Origin: Azonexus sp. | Lineage (GTDB): Bacteria > Pseudomonadota > Gammaproteobacteria > Burkholderiales > Rhodocyclaceae | Direction of reading: 5' to 3' | Assembly (NCBI GenBank): GCA_030696345.1 | Contig: JAUYSK010000024.1 | Location: forward strand, 239,566 to 303,565 | Length of the DNA stretch: 64,000 bases | Shown: positions 20,577-62,454 of the stretch, piece by piece | How the letters are laid out: every line of letters starts with the position of its first letter | How positions within the stretch are numbered: the stretch's first letter is position 1 | Notes under the pieces: model-generated | Databases searched by the model: none | What the model was told of the DNA's origin: nothing | Seen by the model: only the letters and a program-made list of their open reading frames with translations | Made by a program: the position numbers and the translations under genes

Positions 20577-20615
20577 GCCTCCATAGTTAAATGGATATAA
20601 CACGCCCCTCCTAAG
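20577..20615 (+). pseudogene. 5' half of host tRNA-Arg(CCU), disrupted by island (attL)
   Basis: GCCTCCATAGTTAAATGGATATAACACGCCCCTCCTAAG gives the acceptor 5' strand, D-arm, anticodon 5' stem and loop, then non-tRNA sequence. Joined to 62419-62454 it forms a complete 75-nt tRNA. Confidence 0.93.
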
Positions 20616-20664
20616 CAGTCACTTTTGACTATTTGCGAGGGGAAAACAGGGCAAATAATCAATC

Positions 20665-20764
20665 TAACATGTTGATTTAATTTGATTTTATGTTTAGTTG
20701 CTAAATAGCAACACTCCCATCAAATCCATTCAAATCCCGTCCCATTTCGCTACACCCCGTCCCA
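20665..20764. promoter_or_regulatory. attL arm: IHF site and putative integrase arm-type repeats
   Basis: Minus-strand AATCAACATGTTA (20665-20677) is an exact WATCAANNNNTTR. GTCCCA at 20739 and 20759. Confidence 0.7.
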
Positions 20765-20807
20765 AATTTGGTGCGCTTATAAGACAATGGCATTCTGAAA
20801 GATGGAG

Positions 20808-20832
20808 AAAAAGGAACTTGACGCAGTTCCTA
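20808..20832 (-). terminator. Terminator of island tRNA-Arg gene
   Basis: Minus strand AGGAACT-GCGTCA-AGTTCCT followed by TTTT, 12 nt after the CCA. Confidence 0.75.
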
Positions 20833-20843
20833 TTCTATGAGCC

Positions 20844-21139
20844 TGGTGCCCCCGACAGGAATCGAACCTGTACCTAACCCTTCATGCCACTTCAATTTTC
20901 ATTGCCACAATAAATTGTGTTCGTGGTCTGGACTATGCCTTAACCATAAGCAAAATACTCTTAGGTTGACCCTGTCTAGTCTCTACACCTTCCACTTCAA
21001 AAGTGGCTTGGCTCGGCATTGCCACGAGTTTGCACCCAGAGGGTTCACCGAATTTAAGGTCATTCAAGCATTGGCTTTCGCTCAATGTTGCCCAATTTTG
21101 TTTAGGAGGGGTTTGTTGTATCCATTCAACTACGGAGGC
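20844..21139 (-). tRNA. Island-encoded tRNA-Arg(CCU) with group I intron (exons 21139-21104 and 20882-20844)
   Basis: Spliced: GCCTCCGTAGTTGAATGGATACAACAAACCCCTCCT|AAGGGTTAGGTACAGGTTCGATTCCTGTCGGGGGCACCA (75 nt). All stems pair; anticodon arm AACCC-CTCCTAA-GGGTT. Confidence 0.95.
20883..21103 (-). ncRNA. Group I self-splicing intron (221 nt, no ORF)
   Basis: 5' splice site after anticodon U with P1 CCUAA/UUGGG (U-G pair); P2 with GAAA loop; P3 UGACC/GGUCA; P4 UUCGG/CCGAG; P6a CCACUU/AAGUGG; P7 GACUA/UAGUC (R motif GUGUAGAGACUAGA, S motif AAGGCAUAGUCC); P8; terminal G at 20883. Confidence 0.93.
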
Positions 21140-21148
21140 GCAGCCGGC

Positions 21149-21157
21149 ATTCTAGCA
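21149..21157 (-). promoter_or_regulatory. Extended -10 promoter of island tRNA
   Basis: TGC-TAGAAT followed by GC-rich discriminator GCCGGCTGC directly before the tRNA 5' end. Confidence 0.7.
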
Positions 21158-21263
21158 GCCTACAGCACCACTTGGAAGAACGCCAATTCCCTTTAAGGCT
21201 GACGGCACAAGGCCTCAAGCCCATAGTATTATTCGACAATTGCTATTACGCTGAGAGCTTGAA

Positions 21264-21903: not shown

Positions 21904-23066
21904 TCAGAGCACCCCAGTCCGTTCAAACATTTTCTTCAGGTAAGCCTGCCCACCTTCGTTCATGAACAGAACATTCCGGTCTTCCAGCTCTTGTTGCTTA
22001 CAGGTTACATTCAGCAAGTCGCCAAATGCTGTCCCGGACAAGATGAATGCATTCAAGGTCAGCTTGGGGTCCCCCAGTTTTTCCTGAAGCACCTTCACTT
22101 CTTTGTATAACCCCAACTTGGGATCGGTCAGATTCATCTGCCGAATGCCCTTCGGATCAATGAAGTTCAGACACTGCTGGCCTGTTTCTTCATCTACCAG
22201 CCATAGCAGGTAGTCGGGGTAAAAATTGCCCGCCAAGGCAAAACCCAACCCCTTGGCTTTGGTATCGGCGTTGCGCAGTAGGTAAAGACTTCGCTTGCCA
22301 AGGATGGCTTTACCCAATGGCGACTGGTAGAAGGACTCCAGGTCACGGACAAACTGAATTTCACTGGGGGCATCAAAAGCCAGAGGACGCATCTTCAGTG
22401 GAACTGCACCTTCAATGGCAAACAAGGGGTAGTACAGGTGACTATCAAAGCAAATGGCAACCATCTGTCCCGCATTCCACTTGCTGGCTTCACCCAAGTC
22501 ACCCGACTTCACCAGCTCCTGAAGAACCCTGAGTTTTTTCTCGTAGGCTTCGCCGTCTTCAGTATCTTCAATCTCAAACTGATAAACCTTGAGCAGCGTG
22601 TCATCATCTTCTTTGACATTCACAATGTCGTAGAACTGACCTTCGTAGGCCGTCTTCAGTGACTTGTAGAACCGGTCCGTATAGTCCTGTAACAGACGGA
22701 TCAGGATGTCCTCTTGCTTGAGAATATCGGCAAAGCCACGAATGTTCAGTTCAGATTTCGGGATGAACAACGTGTACCAGTCATGATGGTTCAGACAAAA
22801 ATCCACCAGGCGAGCACTGTCTAGTCGCAGGTTGCTCCAGCTTCGCAGTTGCTTGAACTCTTGCACCGCCAAGTAGATGCGATCAAAGTCAAACAGTGCC
22901 ATGGTTTCACTGGCAATCTTACCCATGTGCCGAATATTGCCTTCAGGACCGGCACCGCCCTTGTCCTGACTGGCCAATGCTTCCAGCTTGGGATACAAGT
23001 CTAAGGTGATGTGGGCTTCCTTAATCTTGCCCGCAAACTCAGCAGGCACTTCGTAAAGCCACGGAT
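21904..23066 (-). pseudogene. C-terminal fragment of type III restriction (Res) subunit
   Basis: GNFYPDYLLW..FIDPKGIR PD-(D/E)XK nuclease. The N-terminal helicase part is missing and the frame begins at a junction with the SNF2 fragment. Confidence 0.75.
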
Positions 23067-23272
23067 ATGGTCTTGCCCAAGCCGACTTCATCTGCCAGTA
23101 GAACACCTTTGGACAGTGGCGACTTCAAAGCGAACAGTGCCGCTTCAATCTGGTGCGGGTTCAGGTCAACACTGGCATCAAACAGCGACTGGGACAGCCT
23201 GCCGGCATCGTTCGGCCCATGCCGCCTGGTCAGCTCATGAGCGAAATACTTGGCATGGAAGGATGTGATCAT
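23066..23272 (-). pseudogene. N-terminal fragment of SNF2-family helicase
   Basis: MITSFHAKYFAHELTRR..DLNPHQIEAA..GVLLADEVGLGKTI, with the frame ending 8 codons after Walker A. Confidence 0.8.
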
Positions 23273-24253: not shown

Positions 24254-24272
24254 CCAACACAGCACATTACAC

Positions 24273-28057: not shown

Positions 28058-29995
28058 ATGACTCTAATAAAACGAAAGGACAATGTCAATTACCTAGACA
28101 TTCTCAAGAAAGAAGAAACATACAATGCTTGCTCATCACTCAATGACAAGTCACTCATGGCTCAATACTGCGAAGAATTTTCGGATTACTTCTTTGTTGA
28201 AGACATGGGTGGAAAATCAGTAGTGATTAGCCCTATCCTTCACCAGCGTGCGAGCACCAATAATGATGGTAGCGAATCCTTCGTCAATGACTTCTCATAC
28301 TCCTATTTTTCACAGGCAGAGTTCTGCAAGTCAAAGATCAAGTCTCACTTCAAAATTGACAAGCAATACAATAAATCCACGTATCAGGTTGACGTTTCAT
28401 TCGCCAATTTCTGGCTTGAAACTCGCACTGATATTTGCACCAGCTACAAGCGCACAGTTTTTGACCCCAACCCAAAGTTTAACGATCCCCAGATCTTCAA
28501 TTTTTGGACTGGATTTGCCGATCCGATCAAAGGCGATGTCACGCCATTTCTGAACCACATTGAAAACCTTATTGAAGGCACTGCTGAGCAGAAGGCCCAT
28601 ATCATCAAGTTGATCGGCTACACCGTGAAGTTCCCACACATCCGAACCGACACGACAATCATCCTTCAAGGCAAGCAGGGTTCAGGCAAAACCACCATTT
28701 CCGAGACACTTCGCGCTATGTGTCCGAACCATACCGCTGTCGTGGATAACCTTGACGATCTCTTGACCGGTTTCAATCATGAGTACCACCACACCAAATA
28801 TTTTCTGCACGAAGAGTCAATTTTCTCTGGTGACAAGAAGACGAATGAGCAGATCAAGCCATTGATCACCGGCAACACTCGCAAGAGCAGGATCAAGAAC
28901 ATCACTTCGGTGGAAATCCAGAATTATTCATTTCACATTTTTACCAGCAATAATGACAACCCAGTTCGTATTGAGGATAGTGACCGCCGTCACAATGCCT
29001 TCACTTGCAGCAACAAGCTCATTGGCTACAAGCCTTATTTCAAATCCTACTATGACTGGCTAAACAACGGCGGCGCGAATGCTTTGGTGCACTTTTTCCA
29101 GAACGAAGTGGATTACACCCATTTTGAGCCGACCATTTCGATTGAAACTGATGCCAAGAATTTGATCAAGGCGCAGAACCTAGAGCCTGTAGAGAATTTC
29201 ATCTTCAATATTTTGGCTGGTGCGATTGACCCAATTCCCGGTGACAAACGCTACATGACCGACAACATGGAGAGCCAAGAGCTTGCCATTCCCCGCGCTG
29301 AGCTTTTTGAGCATTTTCAGTCATTCCATAAAATCCCTGGGCGCAACATCATCAATTTCAGCCAGCAGAGTTTCAATGCTCAGATGCAGAAAATTTTTCA
29401 ATTTCCTGATAGTTATACCGAGTGGAAAAGCAAAGCCATTGGACGTTACTTCAAGTTTCCCAAATTGTCTGATGCCCGCGAACGCTTTGCTCAGCATATC
29501 AAGGTCAGTGACTTCTTCAGTTTGACTTGCCCATCGGCTGCGGCTCCCGCAATTGATGATCAAGCAAATGGCGCAGAAACTGGTTTGCTATCCCTTGTGA
29601 CCCAACCGTCCAAACCATTGCCAGCCAAGAACAAGCTTGAACTCGCAAAACACAGGATCAAGCCAATCAATTTCACTATGCCTGCAAAGACCGAAATGCC
29701 ATCAGTTCAGGCTGTACCTCCAAATGCCGAATCTGGCGCAAGCGAAGTGTCGCCTACGCCCGCAGAAAAGGTAGCTGTCCAACAAGCCCAGTCTGGCTTG
29801 CACGACAGCAAGATCAAGCAGCCATTCAACGACTGCGATCCATTTGCCGACGATTTTGATGACGACCCACTTGCATGGAAGCCCCCTGCCAGCCATTCCG
29901 ACGAGTGCTGGACAGACAGCATTGCCGACAAAAAATATGTGGCACCACCAGCGAAGGAAAAATTGAATTTTGGCCGACGAGCTGTAACCCACTAA
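28058..29995 (+). CDS. Replication protein with SF3/D5-like helicase (DUF5906-type)
   Basis: FNFWTGF, Walker A GKQGSGKT, motif C IFTSN, DSDRRH; low-complexity C-terminal tail. Confidence 0.8.
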   Translation: MTLIKRKDNVNYLDILKKEETYNACSSLNDKSLMAQYCEEFSDYFFVEDMGGKSVVISPILHQRASTNNDGSESFVNDFSYSYFSQAEFCKSKIKSHFKIDKQYNKSTYQVDVSFANFWLETRTDICTSYKRTVFDPNPKFNDPQIFNFWTGFADPIKGDVTPFLNHIENLIEGTAEQKAHIIKLIGYTVKFPHIRTDTTIILQGKQGSGKTTISETLRAMCPNHTAVVDNLDDLLTGFNHEYHHTKYFLHEESIFSGDKKTNEQIKPLITGNTRKSRIKNITSVEIQNYSFHIFTSNNDNPVRIEDSDRRHNAFTCSNKLIGYKPYFKSYYDWLNNGGANALVHFFQNEVDYTHFEPTISIETDAKNLIKAQNLEPVENFIFNILAGAIDPIPGDKRYMTDNMESQELAIPRAELFEHFQSFHKIPGRNIINFSQQSFNAQMQKIFQFPDSYTEWKSKAIGRYFKFPKLSDARERFAQHIKVSDFFSLTCPSAAAPAIDDQANGAETGLLSLVTQPSKPLPAKNKLELAKHRIKPINFTMPAKTEMPSVQAVPPNAESGASEVSPTPAEKVAVQQAQSGLHDSKIKQPFNDCDPFADDFDDDPLAWKPPASHSDECWTDSIADKKYVAPPAKEKLNFGRRAVTH

Positions 29996-31870: not shown

Positions 31871-34800
31871 CTAGCTTGTCGTGGTGTCCGGTATTGCCGT
31901 AAAGTCCTCCTCGTCTGCATCCTTGCCATGGACTAGGCGATATAGCAGTGGCAAAACAAGCAGCGTCAGCGCAGTCGATGACAGGATGCCGCCGATCACC
32001 ACCGTAGCGAGCGGGCGTTGGACTTCAGCGCCAGTTCCTATGGCAATCGCCATGGGGACAAAACCGAGGGAAGCCACCAAAGCCGTCATCAGGACAGGAC
32101 GCAGGCGAGTCAGCGCCCCTTCATGAATGGCGTCATCCAGAGAGCGTCCTTCTTCTCGCAAATTGCGAATGAAGGAAATCATCACCAGACCGTTCAGTAC
32201 CGCCACGCCGGACAAGGCGATGAAACCGATGCCGGCCGAAATCGAAAGCGGAATGTCCCTCAGCCAGAGCGCGACGACACCACCCGTGAGCGCGAACGGA
32301 ATGCCGGTAAAGACCAGCAGGCCGTCCTTCACGTTCCCGAACATGGCGAACAGGAGGGTAAATACCAACAGCAAGGCTACGGGCACCACGATCTTGAGGC
32401 GTTTCGAAGCCGATTCCAGTTGTTCGAAAGTTCCGCCCCAAGCAGTCCAGTATCCGGTCGGAATTTTGACCCCGGCTAGGCCTGCCTGAGCCTCGCTAAC
32501 GAAGGAGCCAATATCTCGTCCCCGAACGTTCGAACTGACAACAACGCGACGCTTGCCGTTTTCACGACTAACTTGGTTCGGACCCGGTGCGATCTCAAGG
32601 CTGGCGACTTCACCCAAGGGAATATAGGTCGTACGTGCTTCAACCCCATTTCCAGCAGCAGCCCCCTTCGGCAAAGCGATTGGCAAACGCTTCAGCGATT
32701 CGAGATCCGAGCGCAGGTTATCCGGCAAACGCACAACAATATCGAAGCGGCGGTCACCTTCAAACATGGTTCCAGCCTCTCGGCCACCAATCGCGGTCGA
32801 GATTGCATCCTGAACATCGCCAATATTGAGTCCATAACGAGCCGTCTTCTCCCGATCGATATTCACGGTCAGCATGGGCAAGCCCGTCGTCTGTTCGATC
32901 TTGACCTCGGAAGCGCCTGGGATTTTTTCCAAGACAGCGGAAATCTTGCTGGCCGTTTCGTTCATCACGTCCATATCGTCACCAAATATCTTGATGGCAA
33001 CATCGCTGCGCACCCCGGAGATCAGTTCATTGAAACGCAACTGGATCGGCTGGGAAAACTCATAGGCATTCCCTGGCAACTTTCCAACGGTCTCCTGGAT
33101 GGCCGCCCGCAGTTCGTCCCGCGACTTCCGTGGTTCCGGCCACTCGGTTTCGGGCTTCAGCATGATGTAGCCATCAGAAATATTGGGGGGCATCGGATCT
33201 GAGGCGATTTCGGCCGTGCCAGTTCTCGCAAAGATTCTATCGATCTCCGGATACTCGGCCTTGAGCTGTTTTTCCAATTGTTGCTGCATGGCCACCGACT
33301 GTGAGAGGCTTGTTCCCGGAATGCGCAGTGCCTGGATCGCGAAGTCGCCTTCATTCAGACTCGGCACAAATTCACTCCCCATGCGCGTAGCGACCAAGCC
33401 TGAGAGAAGAACCACGACTGCCGTGAAGACTAACACCACGGGTTTGTTTGCCATGACGCCAGCCAGAACGGGCTCATACCAGCGCTTGGCTGCCCGCATG
33501 AGGAAGTTTTCCTTTTCGTCCACCTTTTCACCTATAAACAGTGCGACGGCTGCTGGAATGAAGGTGACGGAGAGGATCATGGCACCCACGAGCGCGGTGA
33601 CCACGGTAAAGGCCATGGGGTGGAACATCTTTCCTTCAACACCGGTGAGCGCGAAAATCGGCAGATAGACGATCATGATGATGAGCTGACCGAAGAGTAG
33701 AGGACGCCGTGCTTCGCGGGAAGCTGCAAAGACCTCATGGAAGCGCTCTGTTCGCGTCAATGGTCGTCCGTGATGTGCCTGAGCATGGGCTAGTCTGCGA
33801 ACACAGTTCTCGACGATGACGACTGCACCGTCAATGATGATCCCAAAGTCGAGAGCGCCGAGGCTCATCAGGTTGGCGCTAATATGGTAGGTCACCATCC
33901 CCGAAAATGTGAATAGCATGGAGAGCGGGATCACCATGGCGGTGATTACTGCCGCTCGGATGTTGCCGAGGAACAGGAACAGAATGACGATGACCAATAC
34001 GGCGCCTTCCAGAAGGTTCTTCTTGACGGTACTGATCGCTTTGTCCACCAGGACGGTGCGATCATAGACAGTCACCGCCTTGATACCTTCCGGCAGATTG
34101 CGGTTAATTTCGGCCATTTTTTGGTCGACCGCCCGCGAGACGGTGCGACTGTTCTCGCCGATCAACATGAATACCGTGCCGAGCACGACTTCCCGACCGT
34201 TGTCAGTCGCGGCGCCAGTGCGCAGTTCGCGACCGATGCCGACCTCGGCGACGTCACGGATACGAATCGACACGCCTTGAACATTGCCCAGGATGACGTT
34301 CCTGATATCCTCGATACTCCGTACCTGGCCAGGCGCACGAATCAGATACTGTTCGCCGCGCTTCTCGATATATCCAGCGCCAACGTTGCTGTTATTGCGG
34401 TCGATGGCAATCACCACATCCTGAAGGGTCAGGCCGTAGGAAGCCAGCTTTTCAGGGCTGGGTGCGACCTGATACTCTTTGGCGAAGCCACCAATCGAGT
34501 TGATCTCGGTCACGCCCGTCACGTTGCGTAATTGCGGCTTGATAATCCAATCCTGAATCTCACGCAGATCGGTCGGCATGTAAGAGGTGCCATCCGGTTT
34601 TTTGGCGCCATCCTCCGCTTCCACCGTCCAGAGGTAGATTTCTCCTAGCCCGGTCGAGATCGGCCCCATTGCCGGCGCTATTCCTGCCGGGAGTTTTTCC
34701 TTGGCTTCCTGAATCCGCTGATTGACCAGTTGGCGGGCAAAATAGATATCCGTTCCATCCTTGAAAATCACCGTAACCTGAGATAAACCATAACGAGACA

Positions 34801-35053: not shown

Positions 35054-35069
35054 GTCGTTCTCCCTCGCC

Positions 35070-36674: not shown

Positions 36675-36683
36675 AACGGGCTC

Positions 36684-45154: not shown

Positions 45155-45418
45155 ATGAAACTACTTGGAAGAAACCGCCTTCGGGCGCTTTATGGCTTGG
45201 ACGACCATACCGATGCATGGATGCGTAGCTGGGTGTCGGAGCTTTCGCTCGCCAACTGGAAAGAAGCAAAGGATGTTTTGTGCCAATTTCCCAGGGCACG
45301 CAATGTTTCAAATGATGTTTTTCTGTTCCCAGTTGGGCAGCACCTGCAATGCATTGAGGTTGCGATGGTCTTTACACAAGCCGTTGCCCTCGTAGTAGCC
45401 CTGAAGAGTACAAATTGA
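45155..45418 (+). CDS. HigB-like toxin-family protein
   Basis: MKLLGRNRL..W..E..ANWK..DV..QFPRA; overlaps the HigA-like gene (ATGA). Confidence 0.7.
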   Translation: MKLLGRNRLRALYGLDDHTDAWMRSWVSELSLANWKEAKDVLCQFPRARNVSNDVFLFPVGQHLQCIEVAMVFTQAVALVVALKSTN

Positions 45419-46641: not shown

Positions 46642-46642
46642 A

Positions 46643-48882: not shown

Positions 48883-49155
48883 ATGAGGGAACACATACGA
48901 ATGGATGGCATCAAGGTATTTGAAGAAGAAGCAAAGCTTCTTCAGCTTGTCATGCATGAGCACAACACCAAGAATAAAAGTGAAGCATGGCGAATTGCAC
49001 TTCATGAGTACAGCAAGAACAGGAATATTACCCAGTCCTTCAGCGCATTGGAGAATGAATTTCGGGCGACCAAGGATGAAATTGTTCAGCTCAAATTAGC
49101 CATTGAAGACCTCTATTTCATCGTTCAGGCGATGAGCGGGGAGCTACTGCCATGA
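48883..49155 (+). CDS. Relaxosome accessory RHH protein (TrwA/MobC-like)
   Basis: IKVFEEEAKLL..NKSEAWRIAL; translationally coupled to the relaxase. Confidence 0.55.
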   Translation: MREHIRMDGIKVFEEEAKLLQLVMHEHNTKNKSEAWRIALHEYSKNRNITQSFSALENEFRATKDEIVQLKLAIEDLYFIVQAMSGELLP

Positions 49156-52100
49156 TGCTTCGTAACTATGCCGCCATGACCAATCTGGAATATCACGAGA
49201 AGCAACTAAACTACAACAGCACAGCGTTGCTGGCATCCATTGCCGAGAAATTTCCCGACGAGCAGGACCGCGATTTGAACGATCCCAAATTTGCCGAGTT
49301 CTTGGCCGGCAATCCCTACAACCCAAAAATCATGGGCGACCTTGCCCATAGCCTTGGACTGGATAAAAAGTTTCTTAGCCCAGAACTTTGGAAAGACCTT
49401 TCTAACGGCTGGTGCCCAGTCTCCGAATCGTCCCCCTTGTTCAGCCAGGCACAGGTCACCCCAAGGGGAAAGATGGTGCAGTTCAGGAAAACATCCACCC
49501 CGATCAATCCTGATGGAAGTTACCGTTATCCAGCCAAGGGTGAGCAGAAAAATCGACTTGGGACCGAGTTTTTATTCTGCTTTGGCGAGCGCCTATCAAG
49601 CGCCATCGCCTTACTGGCCACCGAAGACCCCAGCATAGAAAAACGCTTCAGCCAGATTTGTAATGAAGTGTTCAGGGATGCTGTCATGCCTGAAATGCTC
49701 AACTTGGCCCGTATCCGAAAAGGTAAGGACGGTACCGATTACCAGTGTGCTGCCGAGATTTTGGGTATCCCATTTTTTCATGTGGACTCGCGCTCAAAAA
49801 GTCCATTTATACATTTTCATTTTGGCTTGATGGGTGTCGCCCGTGGCTATGACGGCAATCTTTACAGCTTATGCACGGACGAGATCGGAGCCAATGCATC
49901 CGCTCTGGATGCCATTTTTATGCGACACATCAAGGAGCGTCTTGAGCAGGAATTCGGGTTTGTTTTTGAACCCGTCAAACACGACGACGATCTTGAGAAC
50001 GAACATATCCAGGACCACGAGAGCAAAACCGTTTCCTTTGATCTTCCCGAAGTGCTGATTCCCGCCAATGTCCGTGAATGGCGCTCCACCCGCGAGAAAG
50101 AGATTCAGAAAGCATTGAAACAGTCTGGAAAGACTGGCTACAAGGCTGAAGAGTTAGCTCGTCTTTCATCACGCGATGAGAAAACCGACAAATCCCCCGC
50201 GCAACTGATGGCACTTTGGAAGCAGGATTTTCAGCGTCTGAATTGGACACCAACCCAGTTCAAGCAAGAGCTCTCTCGCCACAAGGCCAAGCCCCGCACG
50301 GTTCAGCAACCACTGAGCGCTGAAGTCATAGAGGACACCTTTCTTCGCCACCACAGGGATGTAGCGATGACTGAGAACCAGTATCTCGCTCATATCCAGA
50401 AACAGCTTTTACCCTTCATGAGTGGCGATCAGGCAGAACGGCAAGCCAGCACCATCTTTGAACGGGATTGTGTGCTCTCAATGAGTAAGGAGCAGATGGA
50501 TTACTTCAAGCCATTATTGGCAGACACCATCACCGACCCGAACCAGCGTCAGTCCATGCAACTTCGGTTCATGCGAGAGGCCCGATTTCTGCACAAATCC
50601 ACGATAGCCAAGGATGCCTATATCTCGTCCAGCCTGAAGGCTCGTGAGCATGAACAGGGTTTCAAATTTGATTCCGACCAGGTAGCCAGGTTCATCATTG
50701 ACTATGAAATTCAGCAATCCAGTCCAGACCGTAAATTCAAATTTGCCAATGGACAACGAAATGCCGTTCAAATGATTTTGAGTGCCGAAGGTGCCGTTGG
50801 CAACGTATCAGGAAGGGGCGGCAGTGGAAAATCAGCACTTTTGCGATGCGCCCGTGAGTTCTATGTTGCCAACGGCTTCAGGGTCTTCGGCACATCCACC
50901 AGTTCAACCGCCAGCAAGGGACTAGCCGAATCAACAGGCATGGGTGAAAGGGATTTTCACAACACCACCAAGCTCATTCGCCTGCTCGATGAGGGCAAGT
51001 TGAAACTGGATAACAAGTCCATCCTGTTTTGGGATGAGGCCGGAATGGCAGACACGAATTCCTTTTTCCGTGTCATCCAGCACATCAATAAATCTGGTGC
51101 AAGGCTGGTTCTAGTTGGTGAACGTGAGCAATTGCAAAGCGTAGGTTTTGGTGGAAATTTCTCCCAGCTCAACAAGGAGTTCATCACCACCCCAGTTCGT
51201 GAAATCATTCGGCAGGTTGATCAATGGCAACGGGACATGGTGGAAGATTTTGCTAGTGGCCGAGCCAGCCAGGCAGTCCGCACGCTCTATGAAAACGGCA
51301 AGGTCATCATCACCCAATCCGACGAGCAGCGTCTTGCTCAGATTGTGAATGACTACCTATCAGCAACCAGCAGCGCCAAGGACAAAATCATTCTGGCGGC
51401 GACTAATGACGATATTGAGCGAATCAATCTGGCCGTCAGAAACGAGCTCAAGAAGTTAGGCAAATTGCCTGCGCAGGAAGTTACGGTTCAGTGCAAAGAC
51501 AAGCAGGAACGCGGATTTTCAAAGGGTGATCGGATTGTCTTCACCAAAAACCAGAAATCAGACGACGCCGACGCCCAACAGATCAACAACAGCGATACAG
51601 GAGAAGTCGCCGAGATTTTCATGAGCAAGCTGACCGGCAAGCCCCGCTCCATCAAGCTCAAAATGGACGACGGCAGAGAAACCATGCTGGACCTTGGAAA
51701 GACTCACGCCCTACGACATGCCTACGCGGTCACTGTGCATAAAAGTCAGGGAGTAACGAAAAATCAGTCATTTTTCTTTGTGTCGTCAAATACCAACAGC
51801 CTGCACCATGCATATGTAGCCTGTTCTCGCCACCGCCACGAATTGAAGATGTATCTCAGCGAAGAGATGGCGACCAATATGGAAAATAGGCTGGATGGCA
51901 AAGAGCCAACAGCATCTATGAAGAAAGTGGCCCAGTGGCTTGCCCGTGAGAAAAATCTAAACCTACCCACTGAAACCTTGCAGTCATTCAGTGAAACCAG
52001 AGCCTTCCTTGACCAGCACTGGAAAGCCACCACTGGCAACGACCCGTATTTATTGGACCGTTTTACCTGCATCGTGGAAATGGGAAAAACCAACTTCAAG

Positions 52101-52334
52101 AAAACCAGCCACGATTATGAAATTCTGGATGGCGACGCCAAGAACACCTATGAAGCCTTGAAGATTGCACGCGTTGAACAGATTCGCCGCGCCGCTACTC
52201 AACCTGCGCCAATCCCTGATGCGATCAAATCACGATTTGTGCAGACCAGCTTACAGGCGCAACAGCAAGCCATGTTGACGCAACTCACCATGCAGCAGAC
52301 CAAAAACCGGAAACGATCAGCCATGAGAATTTAA
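49152..52334 (+). CDS. MOBF (TrwC-like) relaxase-helicase
   Basis: N-terminal Tyr residues, HUH-like DSRSKSPFIHFH; SF1B helicase GRGGSGKS, WDEAGM, VGEREQLQSV, YAVTVHKSQG. Confidence 0.85.
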   Translation: MMLRNYAAMTNLEYHEKQLNYNSTALLASIAEKFPDEQDRDLNDPKFAEFLAGNPYNPKIMGDLAHSLGLDKKFLSPELWKDLSNGWCPVSESSPLFSQAQVTPRGKMVQFRKTSTPINPDGSYRYPAKGEQKNRLGTEFLFCFGERLSSAIALLATEDPSIEKRFSQICNEVFRDAVMPEMLNLARIRKGKDGTDYQCAAEILGIPFFHVDSRSKSPFIHFHFGLMGVARGYDGNLYSLCTDEIGANASALDAIFMRHIKERLEQEFGFVFEPVKHDDDLENEHIQDHESKTVSFDLPEVLIPANVREWRSTREKEIQKALKQSGKTGYKAEELARLSSRDEKTDKSPAQLMALWKQDFQRLNWTPTQFKQELSRHKAKPRTVQQPLSAEVIEDTFLRHHRDVAMTENQYLAHIQKQLLPFMSGDQAERQASTIFERDCVLSMSKEQMDYFKPLLADTITDPNQRQSMQLRFMREARFLHKSTIAKDAYISSSLKAREHEQGFKFDSDQVARFIIDYEIQQSSPDRKFKFANGQRNAVQMILSAEGAVGNVSGRGGSGKSALLRCAREFYVANGFRVFGTSTSSTASKGLAESTGMGERDFHNTTKLIRLLDEGKLKLDNKSILFWDEAGMADTNSFFRVIQHINKSGARLVLVGEREQLQSVGFGGNFSQLNKEFITTPVREIIRQVDQWQRDMVEDFASGRASQAVRTLYENGKVIITQSDEQRLAQIVNDYLSATSSAKDKIILAATNDDIERINLAVRNELKKLGKLPAQEVTVQCKDKQERGFSKGDRIVFTKNQKSDDADAQQINNSDTGEVAEIFMSKLTGKPRSIKLKMDDGRETMLDLGKTHALRHAYAVTVHKSQGVTKNQSFFFVSSNTNSLHHAYVACSRHRHELKMYLSEEMATNMENRLDGKEPTASMKKVAQWLAREKNLNLPTETLQSFSETRAFLDQHWKATTGNDPYLLDRFTCIVEMGKTNFKKTSHDYEILDGDAKNTYEALKIARVEQIRRAATQPAPIPDAIKSRFVQTSLQAQQQAMLTQLTMQQTKNRKRSAMRI

Positions 52335-53242: not shown

Positions 53243-55801
53243 ATGAGTATCAGGAATGAACCCAAAGCCAAGTTGATGTTGCCCGGCGACCAGCAACCAC
53301 TGGACACCACATTACAGACCGTCCATGTCGGTTCAGCCATTGGCATGGGGTTACTCACTGTCCTCTGCGCCACCAGTCTCATCTTATTGCTGTCATGGGC
53401 GAACTATCCATTTTTTCCCGCTCCGCCCAGCGACCGACCACCGATTTTTCATGTTCAGGCATTCTGGCAGCTAATCGCTGGATTGATTGCCAAAGCATTT
53501 CAAGGAGAAGTGTTCAGGTTCTACCATGACTATCTGAACCAGATGATCAAAATCGGCATGGGTGAAAATCTGGTCTATCGTTGGCTGATTGCCATCGCTG
53601 GCGGGTTGGCTTTTGGTTGCTGGATTTTCTGGAAATCGTTAAAGCCCACTGGTGGCACCAGGCATGTGAAGGGCAAGGAATTACTGGAAGGCAAAGCTGC
53701 CTACCTCACCTTAAAACGGGAGTTCAATTTCCTGTCCCGCAACGGCAAGGGTTCAGGTTTGGTTATCGCTGCCGACAAGGGCTTTGATCCGAGCAAGCCA
53801 CAGCACTACACCCCCCAGCACCTAAAACCAGGCACCTTTATTGAGAAGCCTGAAACCCTTCGCCGTTCGCACGCTCTCTATATTGGTGGGACTGGACGAG
53901 GCAAGACCCAGCTCATCTACTATCTTGAAGTGGCTCAGGTCTACCAACGCATTCGTAACGGCGAACCCGTCAAACTGTTAATCGCAGATACGCCCAAAGG
54001 TGACTACAAATTTTTCTTCCATGATTTCCATGTTTATTCAGTGTCACCTCAAGATGAAGGCGGGGTTTGCTGGGCCATTGCCGAAGACTTACGAAACCCA
54101 TTGGTAGCCAATGCTTTCTGGCGAGGCAAGATTCCCGTGGAAGACAAAAATCCGATTTGGTCACTTGCAGCCGTTTCTGTTTGCACAGGGGCAACCAAGG
54201 TATTGCAGGTCTTGGCACCACGGGCGTGGAATTATGGAATGTTGGCTCATTTGCTTGGCAAATCAGGTGGAGAGTTAGCCATCATTATTGGCGAGCACTA
54301 CCCGGAAGCCCGACAGGTCTTGAACTCAGCCGGTGAAACCCTAGCCAGCGTCATGTTCAATCTGGGCACCTACACTGCCGACATCATTCAACTTGGCCGA
54401 ATCTACGACTGCTACGACACCAAAATTCCGATTCGTCAGGCGACCGCCAAGGCTTTGCAGTCATCTGGCTACCTGAATTACATCGTCAAGGACATGAGTA
54501 GCGACCTACTGGACGCGACCAACGAAACGATCCGCCAAAAAAAGGCTACCTACTTCAAAGGGGTGTGTCTGTATCTCAACAAGGCGAAATCTGGCTGGCG
54601 CTGGAAAGACTTTGCTCGTTTCGTCAAGCAACCGATTGACGAGCAGAACGAGATGATTTTTCCGTTCATCAACGGCAATGAAAAAGCCTCGCTGATGAAA
54701 CCAGCATTCATGGATGGCTGGAAAAATCTTTGTGCTGCCGTAGTTCTTCACGCCCGTGAATGGGATTTGGCTGAAGGCACAAAACGGTTATCAATCCGCT
54801 CTTGGATCATGGACGAAAATCCAAAACGAAAGGTGCTCATTCTCAAACCATCCGAGAGCTTCCCCACCCTAACTGAAGGGCTTATTAAGGGGATACTCTA
54901 CTTTGCCAATACGGTGATTCTGGGCGACCTAGCCGACAGCCGAACCCGCAGATTCCACATTCTGATTGATGAATTTCAGTCCTACGGGAACATTGAAGCC
55001 TTCACGGCACCAGCCTTGTCCTTATACCGATCAAGGGGGATCAGTATCAGTTTGGCAATGCAGGATTTGGCCCAAATCGTCAAAGTCAGCGGTCAGGAGT
55101 TCGTTGATTTCATCACTTCAAATACCGGCAGTATCTTCATACTCGGCGTGAATGACGGTTTCACCGCGAACAAATTTTCTGACCTTCTGGGCGAAAAAAC
55201 CATAGCCAAGCTCCATCGCAGTGTAAGCCACAGCGACGGTGGAAAATCCACATCCACCGACGAGCAGCACCACCAGGAAAAAGTTATGGGAGCCAACGAA
55301 TTCAACTTGCTGGGAGCCAATGAAGCCACCATGACCATTACCTATCTGGCTCTATTCGCCAAGCAGAACCCCGCTTACATTCTGACTGCCCCGATTATTG
55401 CCTACAAGACCAGAGCAGAAAGCAAACCGGCGAAATGGATTGATACATCGCCAGCTACACCCCAATTGCCCAACATGGATGATTACTGGGATGATGCACT
55501 TCAATTAAGCCAAACAACATCAACCGTGAACGCTATCAACGAGGCAGCACTTTCGACGATTAACGAGTTGCTTGACCAGCAATATAAAGGCTACGAAGCC
55601 GACCTTGAACAGGAATACGCCACCCAGACTGAAGCGGACCGTCTGGGGTTCATCCCAGAACCTGGACCATTAGCCATCTACCAGGAAAGCGACGAACAAG
55701 ATGAAATCACCGATTACGCCATGCCAAAAAAAAGGTTTGCCGATGTTCATGGTGAAGAAAATGGAAATCCTTACCGTGAATTGATGTTGCGGCAGGAATA
55801 A
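53243..55801 (+). CDS. Type IV coupling protein (TrwB/TraD-like)
   Basis: N-terminal TMs, Walker A GGTGRGKT, Walker B ILIDEF, AMQDLAQI, SNTGSIFI. Confidence 0.85.
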   Translation: MSIRNEPKAKLMLPGDQQPLDTTLQTVHVGSAIGMGLLTVLCATSLILLLSWANYPFFPAPPSDRPPIFHVQAFWQLIAGLIAKAFQGEVFRFYHDYLNQMIKIGMGENLVYRWLIAIAGGLAFGCWIFWKSLKPTGGTRHVKGKELLEGKAAYLTLKREFNFLSRNGKGSGLVIAADKGFDPSKPQHYTPQHLKPGTFIEKPETLRRSHALYIGGTGRGKTQLIYYLEVAQVYQRIRNGEPVKLLIADTPKGDYKFFFHDFHVYSVSPQDEGGVCWAIAEDLRNPLVANAFWRGKIPVEDKNPIWSLAAVSVCTGATKVLQVLAPRAWNYGMLAHLLGKSGGELAIIIGEHYPEARQVLNSAGETLASVMFNLGTYTADIIQLGRIYDCYDTKIPIRQATAKALQSSGYLNYIVKDMSSDLLDATNETIRQKKATYFKGVCLYLNKAKSGWRWKDFARFVKQPIDEQNEMIFPFINGNEKASLMKPAFMDGWKNLCAAVVLHAREWDLAEGTKRLSIRSWIMDENPKRKVLILKPSESFPTLTEGLIKGILYFANTVILGDLADSRTRRFHILIDEFQSYGNIEAFTAPALSLYRSRGISISLAMQDLAQIVKVSGQEFVDFITSNTGSIFILGVNDGFTANKFSDLLGEKTIAKLHRSVSHSDGGKSTSTDEQHHQEKVMGANEFNLLGANEATMTITYLALFAKQNPAYILTAPIIAYKTRAESKPAKWIDTSPATPQLPNMDDYWDDALQLSQTTSTVNAINEAALSTINELLDQQYKGYEADLEQEYATQTEADRLGFIPEPGPLAIYQESDEQDEITDYAMPKKRFADVHGEENGNPYRELMLRQE

Positions 55802-56224: not shown

Positions 56225-56328
56225 GGCTTGTCTGAGCTTGCCGAAATACAAACCATGATCCTGATTAAATCGATTGCCAGAAAACCAAGGTTTTTGCCGT
56301 CAATTAAGCCAGAAGGCCAGTGATTACA

Positions 56329-57351
56329 ATGGAACTCATGAGCTTTTCTGCGGCATTGAAGGCAGCCAGTCATTGCTCCAAGAAACATTTGTTGCTTGGA
56401 AACGGTTTCAGCATCGCGTGCCGCCCCGATATTTTTGTGTATGGAAAACTTTTTGAGCAAGCAGACTTTTCCAAGCTATCCCCATCTGCGAAGAAGGCAT
56501 TTGAAGCTTTAGGCACACAAGACTTTGAGAAGGTCATAAAAGCATTACGGGATGCCAAAGCCGTATTGGCTGCTTATTCAGGCGTACCACCCAAGCTGTT
56601 GCAAACTCTGGAAGACGACGCCGACGGTCTTCGCGAGCTACTTGTTCAAACTATTGCCGCCAGCCATCCTGAATGGCCTGGCGAGATTCAAGAAAACGAG
56701 TACGCTGCATGTCGGGAATTCATTGGTCATTTTGACAACGTTTACACACTGAATTACGACCTATTGCTTTATTGGGCTCAAATGCACACAGAGCAAGGGA
56801 AAGGACCATCATCAGACGATGGATTCCGAAAACCAGAAGATGACTACGAAGCCTCTTATGTCACTTGGGAGCCAAGCAACAGTCATCGTCAAAATACTTG
56901 GTTCCTACACGGTGCTCTGCATCTATTTGATGCTGGAATTGAGATTCAAAAATATACGTGGGTCAATACCGGGATAAGACTTATCGAGCAAATCCGAGAT
57001 GCCTTGACCCGTGATTACTTTCCAATATTTGTAGCCGAAGGGACTAGCGATGAAAAACTCACGCGAATTCGACACAACGACTATTTAGCAAAGGCTTATC
57101 GGAGCTTCGTCGAGATTGGCGGAGCGTTGTTTGTCTATGGGCACTCACTTGCTGAAAACGATGAGCACTACCTCAAGAAGATTGAGAGAGGGAAAGTAAG
57201 CAATTTATTTGTTGGGATTTATGGCGATCCCAACTCACCCGCAAACAAAGCAATCATAACGCGAGCCAAACGTATGAACATCCCTCGAAGGCGAACTGCA
57301 TTAGCCGTACAGTTCTTCGACGCTGCAACGGCAAGAGTCTGGGGTAAATGA
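56329..57351 (+). CDS. DUF4917 / SIR2-like protein
   Basis: HLLLGNGFSI, YTLNYDLLLYW, FLHGALHLF, IFVAEGTS, LFVYGHSL. Confidence 0.8.
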   Translation: MELMSFSAALKAASHCSKKHLLLGNGFSIACRPDIFVYGKLFEQADFSKLSPSAKKAFEALGTQDFEKVIKALRDAKAVLAAYSGVPPKLLQTLEDDADGLRELLVQTIAASHPEWPGEIQENEYAACREFIGHFDNVYTLNYDLLLYWAQMHTEQGKGPSSDDGFRKPEDDYEASYVTWEPSNSHRQNTWFLHGALHLFDAGIEIQKYTWVNTGIRLIEQIRDALTRDYFPIFVAEGTSDEKLTRIRHNDYLAKAYRSFVEIGGALFVYGHSLAENDEHYLKKIERGKVSNLFVGIYGDPNSPANKAIITRAKRMNIPRRRTALAVQFFDAATARVWGK

Positions 57352-59927: not shown

Positions 59928-59930
59928 AAC

Positions 59931-59948
59931 AAGCCCCGATAGGGGCTT
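59931..59948. terminator. Bidirectional terminator
   Basis: AAGCCCC-GATA-GGGGCTT between convergent genes. Confidence 0.7.
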
Positions 59949-59953
59949 TATTG

Positions 59954-61012
59954 TCACATGCTCATTGCCACCGATTTTTTGGCATTGGCAATCGCACCTT
60001 GAACTAGCTCTTGTGCTTGTTCAGCACGTAATTCCTGAGCCATCTTGTAAGCAGTCAGATGTTCCATCTGGAACTCTGTCGCCTTAGATGCCTGATTTGC
60101 TGCCTTCGTTATCAAGGTCTTGTCATCCTTCAACGCACCTAGCCAGGACTTAAGATATGCAGCGTGGTTCTCATGGCTAGAAGGGTTATGGGGGATGCCT
60201 AGCTCAATAGCCATAAATGAAGAAGTAAGTTCCGCAATCAATTCTTCCTTGGCATATTCGGACGTTCCAAAACCGTTACCCATTTTCCTGCCTAGCGCTG
60301 GACCGGTGCTGTGTCCAAATTCATGCAACAAGGTATCACTGTATGCGTCCGTGCTTTTGAACAAGCTTGGATCTGGCATGTGAACCAAATGCTTGGAGGA
60401 AGAATAGTAGGCACGAGACACACCTGAGTGCTCAACCTTCAAATCGGTTCTTTCCTGCAAAGCCTTAGAAAGAAGCTCAAGTTCATCAAGCGGCTTTACT
60501 TCTTTTGTTACTTCTATGTATGGTGGCATATTCTCAATAGATGAACAATTGAATACTGGATACCATTTGAATCCTATCTTTTGGCTACCATCATCATTGA
60601 GAACAGGCAATGCTTTACCTTGCTCACTCTTCATGATGTTACCTTCACTATCTTTCTGATAAGCAGGAACAACTTTCATAACGAAGGCCGCGCGACTTCC
60701 TTTGCGGATATGTAGCGGAGTGTCCAATATTCTTGACATTTCCTGCATTTGAACAAAAGTCATCCAGCGTGGATCACTGAACTCTTCAGCCATGAGAGCA
60801 GCCACATTGCCACCATGATACTTCTCACCAGTCAATGCATTCTTCGGCCACTCTTCACAACTGAAAAATGGCTTTTCCCACTTCAAACCGTTTTCTTCGC
60901 AAAGTATTGCATCTTCTATACGAGCAATAAACTTGTTAGTCAATTCTTGCTGATAGTCACGTTCTTCAGTTTTATCGTTTGATGTCTTTCCGTAATTTTT
61001 CTTGTAAGCCAT
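59954..61012 (-). CDS. ardC: ArdC-family ssDNA-binding antirestriction protein
   Basis: PKNALTGEKYHGGN, RWMTFVQ, VFN, LLHEFGHST, YAKEELIAE, HAAYLKSW. Confidence 0.9.
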   Translation of the reverse strand: MAYKKNYGKTSNDKTEERDYQQELTNKFIARIEDAILCEENGLKWEKPFFSCEEWPKNALTGEKYHGGNVAALMAEEFSDPRWMTFVQMQEMSRILDTPLHIRKGSRAAFVMKVVPAYQKDSEGNIMKSEQGKALPVLNDDGSQKIGFKWYPVFNCSSIENMPPYIEVTKEVKPLDELELLSKALQERTDLKVEHSGVSRAYYSSSKHLVHMPDPSLFKSTDAYSDTLLHEFGHSTGPALGRKMGNGFGTSEYAKEELIAELTSSFMAIELGIPHNPSSHENHAAYLKSWLGALKDDKTLITKAANQASKATEFQMEHLTAYKMAQELRAEQAQELVQGAIANAKKSVAMSM

Positions 61013-61088
61013 TTGAAACCTTATAGTTATTAGTAATAACTATAAGAAATTAAAAACAAAAGTCAAGCAAACCATTTGAAACAAGAAC

Positions 61089-62279
61089 CTAGACAAGCTC
61101 AAAAATACTTCTATCCTCCGTAACCTCACCACCAAGAGAAGCCCAAATTCTTTCACCAGTATCATTCTTTCTCAACTTCAGATAGTTCAATATTGTCTTG
61201 TGTTCAATATGCCCCGTAATCTTCATAATTGTTCCATCGGGCAAATCAGTGAACATAAAATAATGAGAAATACCTGTATGCCTGAAGATATGTGGTGAAA
61301 TATCTTTTACTTCAGCATTTTTGGCAACAACACGAAATACAGCATAAAAAGCACTTGTTGATTTCCAGAATGGAAATACCAAATCATCATCTTTAGCGTT
61401 GCCACGTCGAGGAATAATGTGCTCCTTTACCAACTTGTAAAAGTTTGGCTGAAGAGGAACAAACCTATCAAATACACTCTTCTTACTCCTAGTTTTCTGA
61501 TGCTCCTTTGGAATGAAAATATGTGAAGAACTGGGCAACTTTTCACTAAATACCAAATCTTTCCAACGACACTTTAGGGCTTCGCCCATTCGCATACAAC
61601 TATAGATTTGGAAGACAATCATTTCCTTTAGCACTTGTTGATTGACATAACTCTTATCAGTTGCTTTCAACAACCTTTGAATTTCATCATCTTCAAGCAT
61701 TCTATCTTTTGGATTGTCCCAAGCGCCTGGAGGCTGATTGTTATCAAAAGGACGTGTATCCATTTGATAATCATTTTGTTTAGCATGCCACTCCAAAGCG
61801 GTCTTAATGTGATAGTAGAGCTTTCTAACTGTTCCAGCAGAGTAAGTTTTTTGAACCCACTCACCATCTTTCAGAACTTTCCCACCATTGAATAGAGGAT
61901 GCTCTTTCTTCTTATTGGCTTGTGGTGGAATTGATTGACTCAGTTTCTTATCAAGGTATTTCCCAAAGGTCTTTGTGTTGAATTTCTCAAACACAACGCC
62001 ACCAATTTCCTTGATTAACCTTCTCATTCCTGCCTTTTTGGCTTCATTGATTTTTCCATCATCAATGTATTCTTGGAATATATCCTTGAGATACAACTTC
62101 CTAACCTTGTGAATATCAAGGTTCTCACCATTCAAGATTTGTGCTTCTTTTTGGATTATCCAGTTATCAGCTTTTTCCCTTGTATCAAAGGTGTCAGTGA
62201 GATTTACACCCTTCTTCCGAACCTTTGCCTGAAAGGATTTTTTTCCATCTTTACCAACTCTGTCGACGACTGACCCCAT
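61089..62279 (-). CDS. int: Tyrosine integrase
   Basis: Catalytic R (SCMRMGE), K, HIFRH, GH..Y; N-terminal arm-binding-like segment; adjacent to attR. Confidence 0.92.
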   Translation of the reverse strand: MGSVVDRVGKDGKKSFQAKVRKKGVNLTDTFDTREKADNWIIQKEAQILNGENLDIHKVRKLYLKDIFQEYIDDGKINEAKKAGMRRLIKEIGGVVFEKFNTKTFGKYLDKKLSQSIPPQANKKKEHPLFNGGKVLKDGEWVQKTYSAGTVRKLYYHIKTALEWHAKQNDYQMDTRPFDNNQPPGAWDNPKDRMLEDDEIQRLLKATDKSYVNQQVLKEMIVFQIYSCMRMGEALKCRWKDLVFSEKLPSSSHIFIPKEHQKTRSKKSVFDRFVPLQPNFYKLVKEHIIPRRGNAKDDDLVFPFWKSTSAFYAVFRVVAKNAEVKDISPHIFRHTGISHYFMFTDLPDGTIMKITGHIEHKTILNYLKLRKNDTGERIWASLGGEVTEDRSIFELV

Positions 62280-62300
62280 AATCTCGCCTAGTCCTTTCTT

Positions 62301-62378
62301 GTCCCGTATAATCCGATTGTCCCATTTTCGTCCCAAACGGTAAAATCTGGAACTTGAAAGCAGTATAACGTATTGATT
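62301..62378. promoter_or_regulatory. attR arm: GTCCCR repeats and IHF site
   Basis: GTCCCG at 62301, GTCCCA at 62319 and 62330. Minus-strand AATCAATACGTTA (62366-62378) is an exact IHF consensus. Confidence 0.7.
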
Positions 62379-62407
62379 TTACTAATTTAACAAGAAACTT
62401 CAGCGCC

Positions 62408-62454
62408 CCCCTCCTAAGGGCGAATTGGTGGTTCGATTCCACCTGGGGGTACCA
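62408..62454 (+). pseudogene. 3' half of host tRNA-Arg(CCU) (attR)
   Basis: CCCCTCCTAAG-GGCGAATTGGTGGTTCGATTCCACCTGGGGGTACCA: T-arm, acceptor 3' strand and CCA, with no D-arm upstream. Confidence 0.93.

Follow-up and report, generated by a model that had tools for sequence, protein, structure and literature searches.

A mobilizable island in Azonexus that splits the host tRNA-Arg(CCU) gene and carries an intron-bearing replacement, member of a family with a putative tRNA-dependent mode of integration

Fionnbharth and other temperate actinobacteriophages of subcluster K4 and of cluster L practise tRNA-dependent lysogeny, in which the attachment sites share a short core, the tRNA gene is not rebuilt upon integration, and lysogens are viable only with a phage-encoded tRNA of equal isotype (Guerrero-Bustamante and Hatfull, 2024; PMC10865867); the prevalence of this strategy beyond actinobacteriophages was stated as unknown in the same study. 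Here we describe a stretch of 64,000 nucleotides from Azonexus sp. (assembly GCA_030696345.1, contig JAUYSK010000024.1, positions 239,566 to 303,565), hereafter the window, which holds a 41.8-kb integrative mobilizable element at 20616-62407. At the two ends of this island the host tRNA-Arg(CCU) gene is broken, and a second tRNA-Arg(CCU) gene, interrupted by a group I intron, is located just inside one of them. The best explanation, to which we assign as a whole a probability of roughly 0.7, combines the splitting of the host gene, its complementation by the island tRNA, and an optional intron that was inherited with the latter. By analogy, this arrangement resembles the integration mode described in 2024 for actinobacteriophages, and would extend it to proteobacterial mobilizable islands.

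The island shares with the actinophage systems a tyrosine integrase, an attB within a host tRNA gene, a common core of about 10 bp that is flanked by putative arm-type sites, and the lack of a rebuilt tRNA at attL and attR. Unlike the actinophages, it is a mobilizable element of Proteobacteria with a relaxase and a coupling protein, in which no phage structural genes were found; it targets the anticodon loop of tRNA-Arg(CCU), its replacement gene lies directly beside attP, and one clade of related islands has a group I intron in this gene. Moreover, the actinophage tRNA was shown to be required, whereas the island is presumed to depend on its own tRNA. Canonical tRNA islands, as collected in the Islander database (PMC4383910), resemble the present family in using a tyrosine integrase, in targeting a tRNA gene, in the core being directly repeated at both ends and in the integrase gene lying next to one of them, but they regenerate the gene by bringing along its 3' (or 5') portion, whereas the islands described here bring a core of 9-12 bp only and leave two dead halves. 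Group I introns in tRNA-Arg(CCU) are a known family, self-splicing in Alphaproteobacteria and recorded from Agrobacterium, other Alphaproteobacteria and Bartonella (BbgpI), according to PMC7717549, which cites Paquin et al. (1999); in addition, the tRNA-Ile of Azoarcus carries an IC3 intron (PMC3984707). The intron of the island resembles the known tRNA-Arg(CCU) introns in that it is small, devoid of an open reading frame (ORF) and located in the anticodon loop beside CCU, and in that its gene is missed by standard tRNA finders. However, those introns reside in chromosomal host genes, whereas here the gene is the cargo of an element that destroyed the intronless copy of its host.

Both halves of the host (Azonexaceae) tRNA-Arg(CCU) gene are oriented in the same direction and were broken in the anticodon loop (coordinates in Table 1). 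The orphaned 5' half, whose sequence recurs unchanged at the start of the intact gene in 60 Azonexaceae species, terminates in CCCCTCCTAAG and is followed by unrelated DNA; the second copy of CCCCTCCTAAG leads into the 3' anticodon stem, the variable region, the T arm, the acceptor strand and CCA. Exact copies of this 11-mer are present at 20605 and 62408 only in the 64-kb window. Island DNA reads CAGTCACTTTTG... after attL and ...ACTTCAGCGCC before attR, the intact gene is found at neither junction, and neither ARAGORN at default settings nor Rfam at the gathering threshold detected a complete tRNA at attL or attR. When the two halves were rejoined by script, ARAGORN called a tRNA-Arg(CCU). 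As attP and attB share only these 11 bp (9 bp family-wide), neither junction rebuilds the tRNA, and the host gene is therefore inactivated; the promoter-like site upstream now serves the orphaned 5' half only. The sole tRNA that default tools call in the window is an ordinary tRNA-Ser(UGA) at 5399-5486 on the minus strand.

A 38-mer across the rejoined junction is intact in 60 species-representative genomes, nearly all of them Dechloromonas, Azonexus or Ferribacterium (Azonexaceae). The flanking genes follow a conserved order in these relatives, namely an ABC-F ATPase gene (minus strand), often a methyl-accepting chemotaxis protein (MCP) gene (minus), tRNA-Arg(CCU) (plus) and a spermidine-synthase-like gene (plus), as exemplified by our loci L003, L013, L019, L020, L028, L029, L033, L042, L050 and L058. 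The conserved flank order together with the intact gene in relatives identifies the 41.8 kb between the two halves as an insertion.

Five YGTCCCR repeats are clustered at the two island ends, all on the plus strand, compared with 22 in the whole window on both strands, and GTCCCA repeats also occur near the att ends of related islands, e.g., L117 and L121. By position and by the similar repeats in relatives, these clusters fit arm-type integrase sites; like the promoters, they were assigned by consensus and conservation. On the island side of attL there is also a palindrome, imperfect in the window, which takes in the core; we asked whether crossover might in truth occur there, and rejected this since the palindrome lies outside the block of identity between attP and attB. 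At the equivalent place, the related locus L114 (positions 23-70) shows a perfect 14-bp inverted repeat, CCTCCTAAGCAGTC-ATTTTA-GACTGCTTAGGAGG.

The second tRNA-Arg(CCU) gene, hereafter the cassette, was located by ARAGORN with its intron option at 21139-20844 on the minus strand, 229 bp inside attL. It is missed by ARAGORN at default settings as well as by Rfam at the gathering threshold, and a scan of viral contigs for its 5' exon gave no match. Spliced cassette sequences are called tRNA-Arg(CCU) by ARAGORN. A terminator-like hairpin follows the gene, and a putative promoter precedes it, of which only the -10 box is conserved in relatives, as TAGAAT(G)CCG in L103, L089, L108 and L114; the consensus scan did not call this promoter.

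The intron interrupts the cassette after anticodon nucleotide 36. A 901-nt scan with the Rfam group I model RF00028 matched it over the full model length with 33.3 bits (E 1.4e-6), compared with a gathering score of 50. An alignment of 11 homologous intron-bearing tRNA-Arg(CCU) genes was more informative, in that compensatory changes were found in 41 of the 83 pairs of the RNAalifold consensus. This consensus contains the acceptor, D and T stems of the tRNA, an anticodon stem formed across the intron, and the intron helices P1, P2, P3, P4, P5, P6, P8 and P9, while P7 is invariant and, as part of a pseudoknot, was not predicted. Compensatory changes affect four of the five anticodon stem pairs across the intron, all 11 introns end in G before AAG, and a U.G pair is formed at the 5' splice site, where CCU|AA pairs with UUGGG. 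Exons and introns diverge to a similar degree among the homologues. From the covariation across the intron and from the splice-site features, we conclude that the insert is a true group I intron of IC3-like type, and that the gene around it appears, by its sequence, to be under selection for a working tRNA. Its core elements AAAUUCGG.GAA, GCCGAGCCAAG, AGAGACUAGAC and AUAGUCC we take to be near-identical to those of the Azoarcus intron.

These results bear on a first-pass annotation of the window, made from the sequence itself, which had described a host tRNA-Arg(CCU) split without a complete tRNA at either end, a same-isoacceptor gene about 230 bp inside attL, and a 221-nt group I intron in the latter. 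All three were substantiated, by the two halves with their 11-bp core, by ARAGORN with the intron option, and by exact intron boundaries along with the 41 of 83 compensatory pairs, respectively. The comparison with island-free relatives proposed there likewise revealed an intact gene between the MCP and spermidine-synthase-like homologues in many of the 60 Azonexaceae species. Its description of a promoter-tRNA-terminator unit was borne out for the tRNA and the terminator hairpin, but the promoter was read by eye and not called by the scan; similarly, the suggested Infernal search with RF00028 did return a full-length match, but with a score short of the gathering value.

Related islands proved to be widespread. 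Close relatives of the integrase are few; a sensitive word-seeded search returned 25 homologues at E <= 1e-20, and alignment A1 of these proteins retrieved 27 integrase loci from 185,579 species genomes, where the single-integrase query gave none; the genera include Burkholderia, Cupriavidus, Undibacterium, Polaromonas, Hydrogenophaga, Diaphorobacter, Limnohabitans, Duganella, Deefgea, Azonexus and others. In 23 of these 27 loci, a lone tRNA-Arg(CCU) 3' half is found beside the integrase gene and no complete tRNA was called. The same transition, from island DNA through CCTCCTAAG to the 3' half only, is seen in L106, L105 and L107 (94%, 65% and 50% integrase identity), and this type of attR junction was observed in 26 related loci altogether. 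The family-wide common core is CCTCCTAAG, i.e., the 9 bp of tRNA positions 31-39 (C31, the loop and G39). At a locus of Delftia tsuruhatensis (L141, ~3000-3250), an integrase of 35% identity lies beside a lone tRNA-Arg(UCU) 3' half with the junction CCTTCTAAG, and splitting without rebuilding thus reaches a second arginine isoacceptor.

The cassette accompanies this junction throughout the family. At every attL end seen it lies ~200-240 bp inside, and complete relatives of 8-11 kb repeat the layout att-cassette-xis ... int-att. Four islands of ~10-11 kb with both ends in the locus (L123 from Diaphorobacter caeni, L124, L126, and L138 from Deefgea salmonis) possess an intronless tRNA-Arg(CCU) ~200 bp inside attL, inverted with respect to the split host 5' half; relatives of 10.7 kb with few genes still keep it. 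L125 has an equivalent intronless cassette, its attL being beyond the end of the locus, and L142 and L143 are intronless as well. Intron-bearing cassettes were found in L121 (Polaromonas), with Burkholderiales-type exons, and in L117 and L133, where the cassette is oriented as the host half.

The cassette is adjoined, in every context examined, by a gene for a ~150-aa helix-turn-helix (HTH)-like protein, which has no Pfam match. A profile of this protein finds 243 homologues, also from Enterobacter, Ralstonia, Achromobacter, Comamonas and Variovorax, and taken as a marker it gives the family at least 243 homologues of this protein, with members in E. coli, Enterobacter, Ralstonia and Achromobacter. 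All contexts of this protein that were fetched, from an E. coli draft genome, Ralstonia pseudosolanacearum, Achromobacter insolitus and several wastewater metagenomes, combine a split host tRNA-Arg(CCU) 5' half with an intronless cassette, and a Zoogloea-type island shows the same combination in at least three host backgrounds. In the E. coli draft contig (L144, 2560-3000), argW is the split gene and the cassette is an intronless tRNA-Arg(CCU); among 5,426 complete E. coli genomes the island was found in none, the attL-cassette query matching the host flank only. The family is mostly betaproteobacterial, with members in Enterobacteriaceae, and that destroying the target while carrying its replacement is the way of life of these islands is strongly supported. 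The family is apparently undescribed, and in our search of the literature we met no earlier account of an integrative element whose replacement tRNA contains an intron. One Zoogloea-type island (L149, 2460-2560) departs from the family core, with CCTACTAAG in place of CCTCCTAAG in the orphaned host 5' half; just beyond this island there is a second integrase gene. Either the dead half has decayed or a secondary site may have been used.

Closer relatives of the window's island were encountered in metagenomes. The contigs L102 and L108-L113 contain the equivalent attL end with ~93% DNA identity and 90% identity of the neighbouring ORF, and L114 contains it with 62% identity of that ORF. All of them show a split Azonexaceae 5' half, equal spacing and an intron-bearing cassette, and their host flanks differ; the anticodon stem differs in a compensatory manner between the window (AACCC/GGGTT) and L108 (ACCCC/GGGGT). 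In L104 (113-428), a cassette copy of 98.5% identity shows 20 bp duplicated in tandem (GGTGTAGAGACTAGACAGGG) within the P7/P3 core of its intron, owing either to misassembly or to a mutation that inactivates the ribozyme; the L104 contig lacks the equivalent of window 22072-29754. Several short-read contigs (L105 and L106, each at 1-30, and the ends of L115 and L116) break inside the tRNA T arm, as is expected where the cassette and the host half share the T-arm sequence, and assemblies will often contain such islands in fragments and miss them. Furthermore, standard island finders presuppose a regenerated tRNA gene and standard tRNA finders overlook genes with an intron, and these islands are therefore likely mis-annotated, as is likely the cell's only tRNA-Arg(CCU) in island carriers.

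Two loci show the cassette without the island. In Azonexus sp. GS9 (L089, 1667-1973) and in a metagenome contig (L103, 2482-2782), an intron-bearing tRNA-Arg(CCU) with 75-79% identity to the window cassette occupies the conserved ABC-F locus (cf. window 16458-20615) in the orientation of the island, not of the native gene. Of the native gene, the upstream sequence is kept but the tRNA and its -10 box have disappeared; in L089 the other side consists of low-G+C DNA. By their sequence, both loci seem to hold a cassette that remained when its island was lost and took the place of the native gene. Its retention without the island argues that the tRNA is needed, to which the presence of a cassette at every attL end seen also points, and the two loci suggest a possible route by which mobile elements could supplant a tRNA gene of their host and disseminate a group I intron.

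The tyrosine integrase joined attP to attB within the anticodon loop of the host tRNA gene, and the element brings a self-contained tRNA-Arg(CCU) gene, equipped with its own -10 box and terminator and placed between the P' arm and an excisionase-like gene. We propose that this cassette makes good the loss of the host gene. It would restore AGG decoding, integration would accordingly depend on the element's own tRNA, and the intron would have to self-splice for a mature tRNA to form. The intron was most likely inherited with the cassette in one family clade and is tolerated as phenotypically neutral rather than required. Expression of the cassette, splicing of the intron and excision of the island are predictions of this proposal.

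The cassette could instead serve mainly the island's own translation, the loss of the host copy being incidental and tolerated. AGG amounts to 6.9 per 1000 codons in the A+T-rich island backbone versus 2.5 in the host genes of the window, and tRNA-Arg(UCU) can often read AGG; both speak for this idea. We consider it improbable, however, since the isoacceptor always matches the destroyed gene throughout the family, the cassette was kept at the native locus after island loss in L089 and L103, and the small 10.7-kb relatives retain it with their few genes; besides, service to the island's translation is compatible with complementation and not exclusive of it. Much less credible is a reading in which the intron-bearing tRNA gene belongs to the host, or unrelated insertions make up the 42 kb, and in which the two halves and the cassette hence do not form part of a single element. 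The heterogeneous G+C content of the region (40-59%) and the presence of intron-bearing tRNA-Arg(CCU) as plain chromosomal genes in Burkholderiales would be in line with it, but it is already contradicted by the flanks, which are joined exactly in island-free relatives, by the cassette and neighbouring ORF, which accompany the attL junction across hosts and samples (L102, L108-L113, L114), by the layout repeated in complete relatives of 8-11 kb, and by the confinement of the core to the two island ends.

Complementation by the island tRNA remains our preferred reading, and the role of its intron is to be weighed separately. The first-pass annotation had proposed that the intron breaks the att core and acts as a shield against integration. 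As DNA, the intron opens with AAA, and the cassette therefore reads CCCCTCCTAAA, which retains 10 of the 11 core bases (8 of 9 in the family-wide core) and the whole 7-nt loop; what the intron displaces from the DNA site is G39 together with the 3' stem arm, and the core is thus masked only thinly. A necessary shield is not supported, since the very state that the annotation had named as refuting its reading is common: homologous islands of equal architecture carry intronless cassettes, whose anticodon stems are of six different kinds, in hosts that include Diaphorobacter, Limnohabitans, Deefgea, Zoogloea, Ralstonia, Achromobacter and E. coli. Co-occurrence of integrase and intron, which the same annotation had suggested to survey, was seen in one clade only, most relatives being intronless. 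A modified version may be considered, in which the replacement loop CUCCUAA, being the integrase crossover region, would create a pseudo-attB ~230 bp from attP; the intron would take G39 and the 3' stem arm from the DNA site and so guard against the integrase of the island or of a superinfecting relative, and intronless cassettes would reach the same end via a changed stem pair 30-40. We regard this version as doubtful.

The anticodon stems speak in its favour. All six distinct stems of intronless cassettes (AGAAC/GTTCT, GGTTC/GAATC, AGGTC/GACCT, ATTTC/GAAAT, TCTTC/GAAGA and CGATC/GATTG) have A/T at pair 30-40, whereas position 30 is G/C in all 14 distinct split host 5' halves; in the 12 distinct host 3' halves, position 40 is G/C in ten, T in two and A in none. 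Four of the five stem types of intron-bearing cassettes or cassette-like genes (AACCC, ACCCC, ACTCC, ATCCC) keep C30:G40 in equally A+T-rich islands, and A:T occurs in the fifth only (L117/L133). This comparison, of L115, L123-L126, L138 and L142-L162 with the host halves, involves a small and phylogenetically structured sample. The intronless Zoogloea-type cassette matches the intron-bearing gene of L063 in the 5' acceptor strand, the D arm and nearly the T arm, and differs from it mainly in the anticodon stem (TCTTC/GAAGA versus ATCCC/GGGAT). An A+T mutational bias is a possible confounder; against it, the acceptor and T stems of the intronless cassettes stay G+C-rich, and intron-bearing cassettes keep C:G in islands just as A+T-rich. 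In addition, intron-bearing tRNA-Arg(CCU) looked rare, with three loci among 185,579 species representatives under a deliberately strict pattern, and yet it occurs in three island lineages. A precedent comes from archaea, where tRNA introns and split tRNA genes were hypothesized to protect against integration (Randau and Soll, 2008, as cited in PMC3488258). In both cases an interruption at the DNA level would remove the integrase target and preserve the RNA product; however, the archaeal hypothesis concerns host genes with protein-spliced introns, whereas here a mobile element's own gene carries a ribozyme intron whose protective effect is hypothetical. The pattern at pair 30-40 fits selection against attB-like cassettes, for which an intron and a stem change might be alternatives.

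Much can be held against such a role. Intronless cassettes are the common state, and the intron is hence unneeded; the window cassette preserves nearly the entire core as DNA; and two natural attB sites have T at position 40 (L125 and L137), by which A/T is no absolute bar. Among the attB sites of type-A integrases nothing beyond the 9-bp core is invariant, and this core is present in the intronless cassettes of the same islands. Nested integration into a cassette was seen in none of ~50 loci, leaving the threat undemonstrated, and the actinophage systems work with intronless phage tRNAs (PMC10865867). The intron-bearing cassettes of the window, L117 and L121 cluster with L105-L107 in one integrase clade, separate from the intronless type-A group, in a tree built crudely by the unweighted pair group method with arithmetic mean (UPGMA), and the correlation may reflect as few as two independent events. 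Homologous introns are also present in ordinary chromosomal tRNA-Arg(CCU) genes of Burkholderiales without signs of an island (L061-L063); we examined whether these are hidden island cassettes and rejected this, as the G+C content is homogeneous and neither half-tRNAs nor arm repeats are nearby. With all intron-bearing cassettes in one clade and chromosomal homologues of their introns, descent is a sufficient explanation. It is therefore only tentatively that we entertain cassettes kept invisible to the integrase by A:T at 30-40 or by a group I intron after nucleotide 36. That the intron exists is clear, but the islands can do without it, and a role as shield, which is unproven, would be at most one of two solutions. 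If true, this two-way invisibility would give a group I intron of a bacterial tRNA its first adaptive role, and natural pairs of intron-bearing and intronless cassettes with cognate integrases make the question of protection by tRNA introns directly testable.

Several points weigh against the explanation we prefer, that of a split host gene complemented by an island tRNA with an inherited intron. The RF00028 score is under the gathering threshold; only the 64-kb window of the source genome is in view, and a second tRNA-Arg(CCU) copy is possible. tRNA-Arg(UCU) reads AGG in some bacteria, and the cassette may thus be non-essential. Moreover, the pair 30-40 pattern hints at integrase-related selection on cassettes, which weakens the notion of the intron as a pure passenger, and the integrase tree is a crude UPGMA on identities.

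Table 1. Features of the island and its junctions in the window; positions on the minus strand are given in the direction of transcription for the cassette.
Feature	Position	Strand	Details and basis
Promoter-like site of host tRNA-Arg(CCU), ATCACA-17-TACAAT	20523..20551	+	Consensus scan; TACAAT box conserved in relatives upstream of intact gene
Host tRNA-Arg(CCU) 5' half	20577..20615	+	Nucleotides 1-39: acceptor strand, D arm, 5' anticodon stem, loop
attL core copy, 11 bp, CCCCTCCTAAG	20605..20615	.	Exact matching in window
Imperfect palindrome starting in core, CCCCTC..AGTCA / TGACT..GAGGGG	20605..20640	.	Read by eye
Two YGTCCCR repeats, candidate arm-type integrase sites (P' arm)	20738..20764	+	Motif clustering
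Terminator-like hairpin and T run downstream of cassette tRNA	20831-20812	-	Scan
Cassette tRNA 3' exon, nucleotides 37-76 including CCA	20882-20844	-	ARAGORN intron option; anticodon-stem covariation
Group I intron, 221 nt, IC3-like, no ORF	21103-20883	-	After anticodon nucleotide 36; limits from ARAGORN
Cassette tRNA 5' exon, nucleotides 1-36	21139-21104	-	ARAGORN intron option
Putative cassette promoter TTCCAA-17-TAGAAT	21177-21149	-	Read by eye; -10 box 9 nt upstream of tRNA 5' end
Conserved ~150-aa protein, N-terminal helix-turn-helix-like segment	21264..21731	+	Alignment A3; excisionase-like by position
Truncated type III restriction enzyme fragment (cargo remnant)	21904..23106	-	PADLOC REase_III, profile positions 739-1125 of 1154
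DUF5906/VapE-like primase-helicase	28058..29995	+	Pfam
Metal-resistance cargo: resistance-nodulation-division (RND) efflux trio, two-component system, P-type ATPase	31871..43696	.	Pfam
PD-Lambda-2 B and C anti-phage defence genes (cargo)	45415..47746	+	PADLOC, E 1e-188 and 6e-140
TrwC-type relaxase with helicase domain	49152..52334	+	Pfam
Type IV coupling protein, TraG/TrwB-like	53243..55801	+	Pfam
PDC-S21 candidate (DUF4917), defence cargo	56320..57351		PADLOC
ArdC-like anti-restriction protein with metallopeptidase domain	59954..61012	-	Pfam
Tyrosine integrase, 396 aa	61089..62279	-	PF00589; mechanical ORF extends to 62336; adjoins attR
Three YGTCCCR repeats, candidate arm-type sites (P arm)	62300..62335	+	Motif clustering
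attR	62408..62454	+	Core copy 62408-62418, then host tRNA-Arg(CCU) 3' half through CCA

The remaining gene content of the island (Table 1) agrees with a mobilizable element. The integrase homologues have 381-431 aa, and R, K, H-x-x-R, H and Y are invariant in alignment A1. Type IV secretion genes were not found by Pfam among the window ORFs of at least 90 aa, and the element therefore looks mobilizable rather than self-transmissible; phage structural genes were absent among the Pfam-annotated ORFs of the island, which is not a temperate phage, though working like a phage system. The G+C content of the island ranges from 40 to 59% against about 59% in the flanks, with 40-47% in the backbone and 55-59% in the metal-resistance block. 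The latter also has a host-like AGG usage (2.3 per 1000 codons, close to the value for the host genes of the window) and was probably acquired later. The type III restriction enzyme fragment comprises the C-terminal third only, and at this place L114 has an intact Mod and Res pair.

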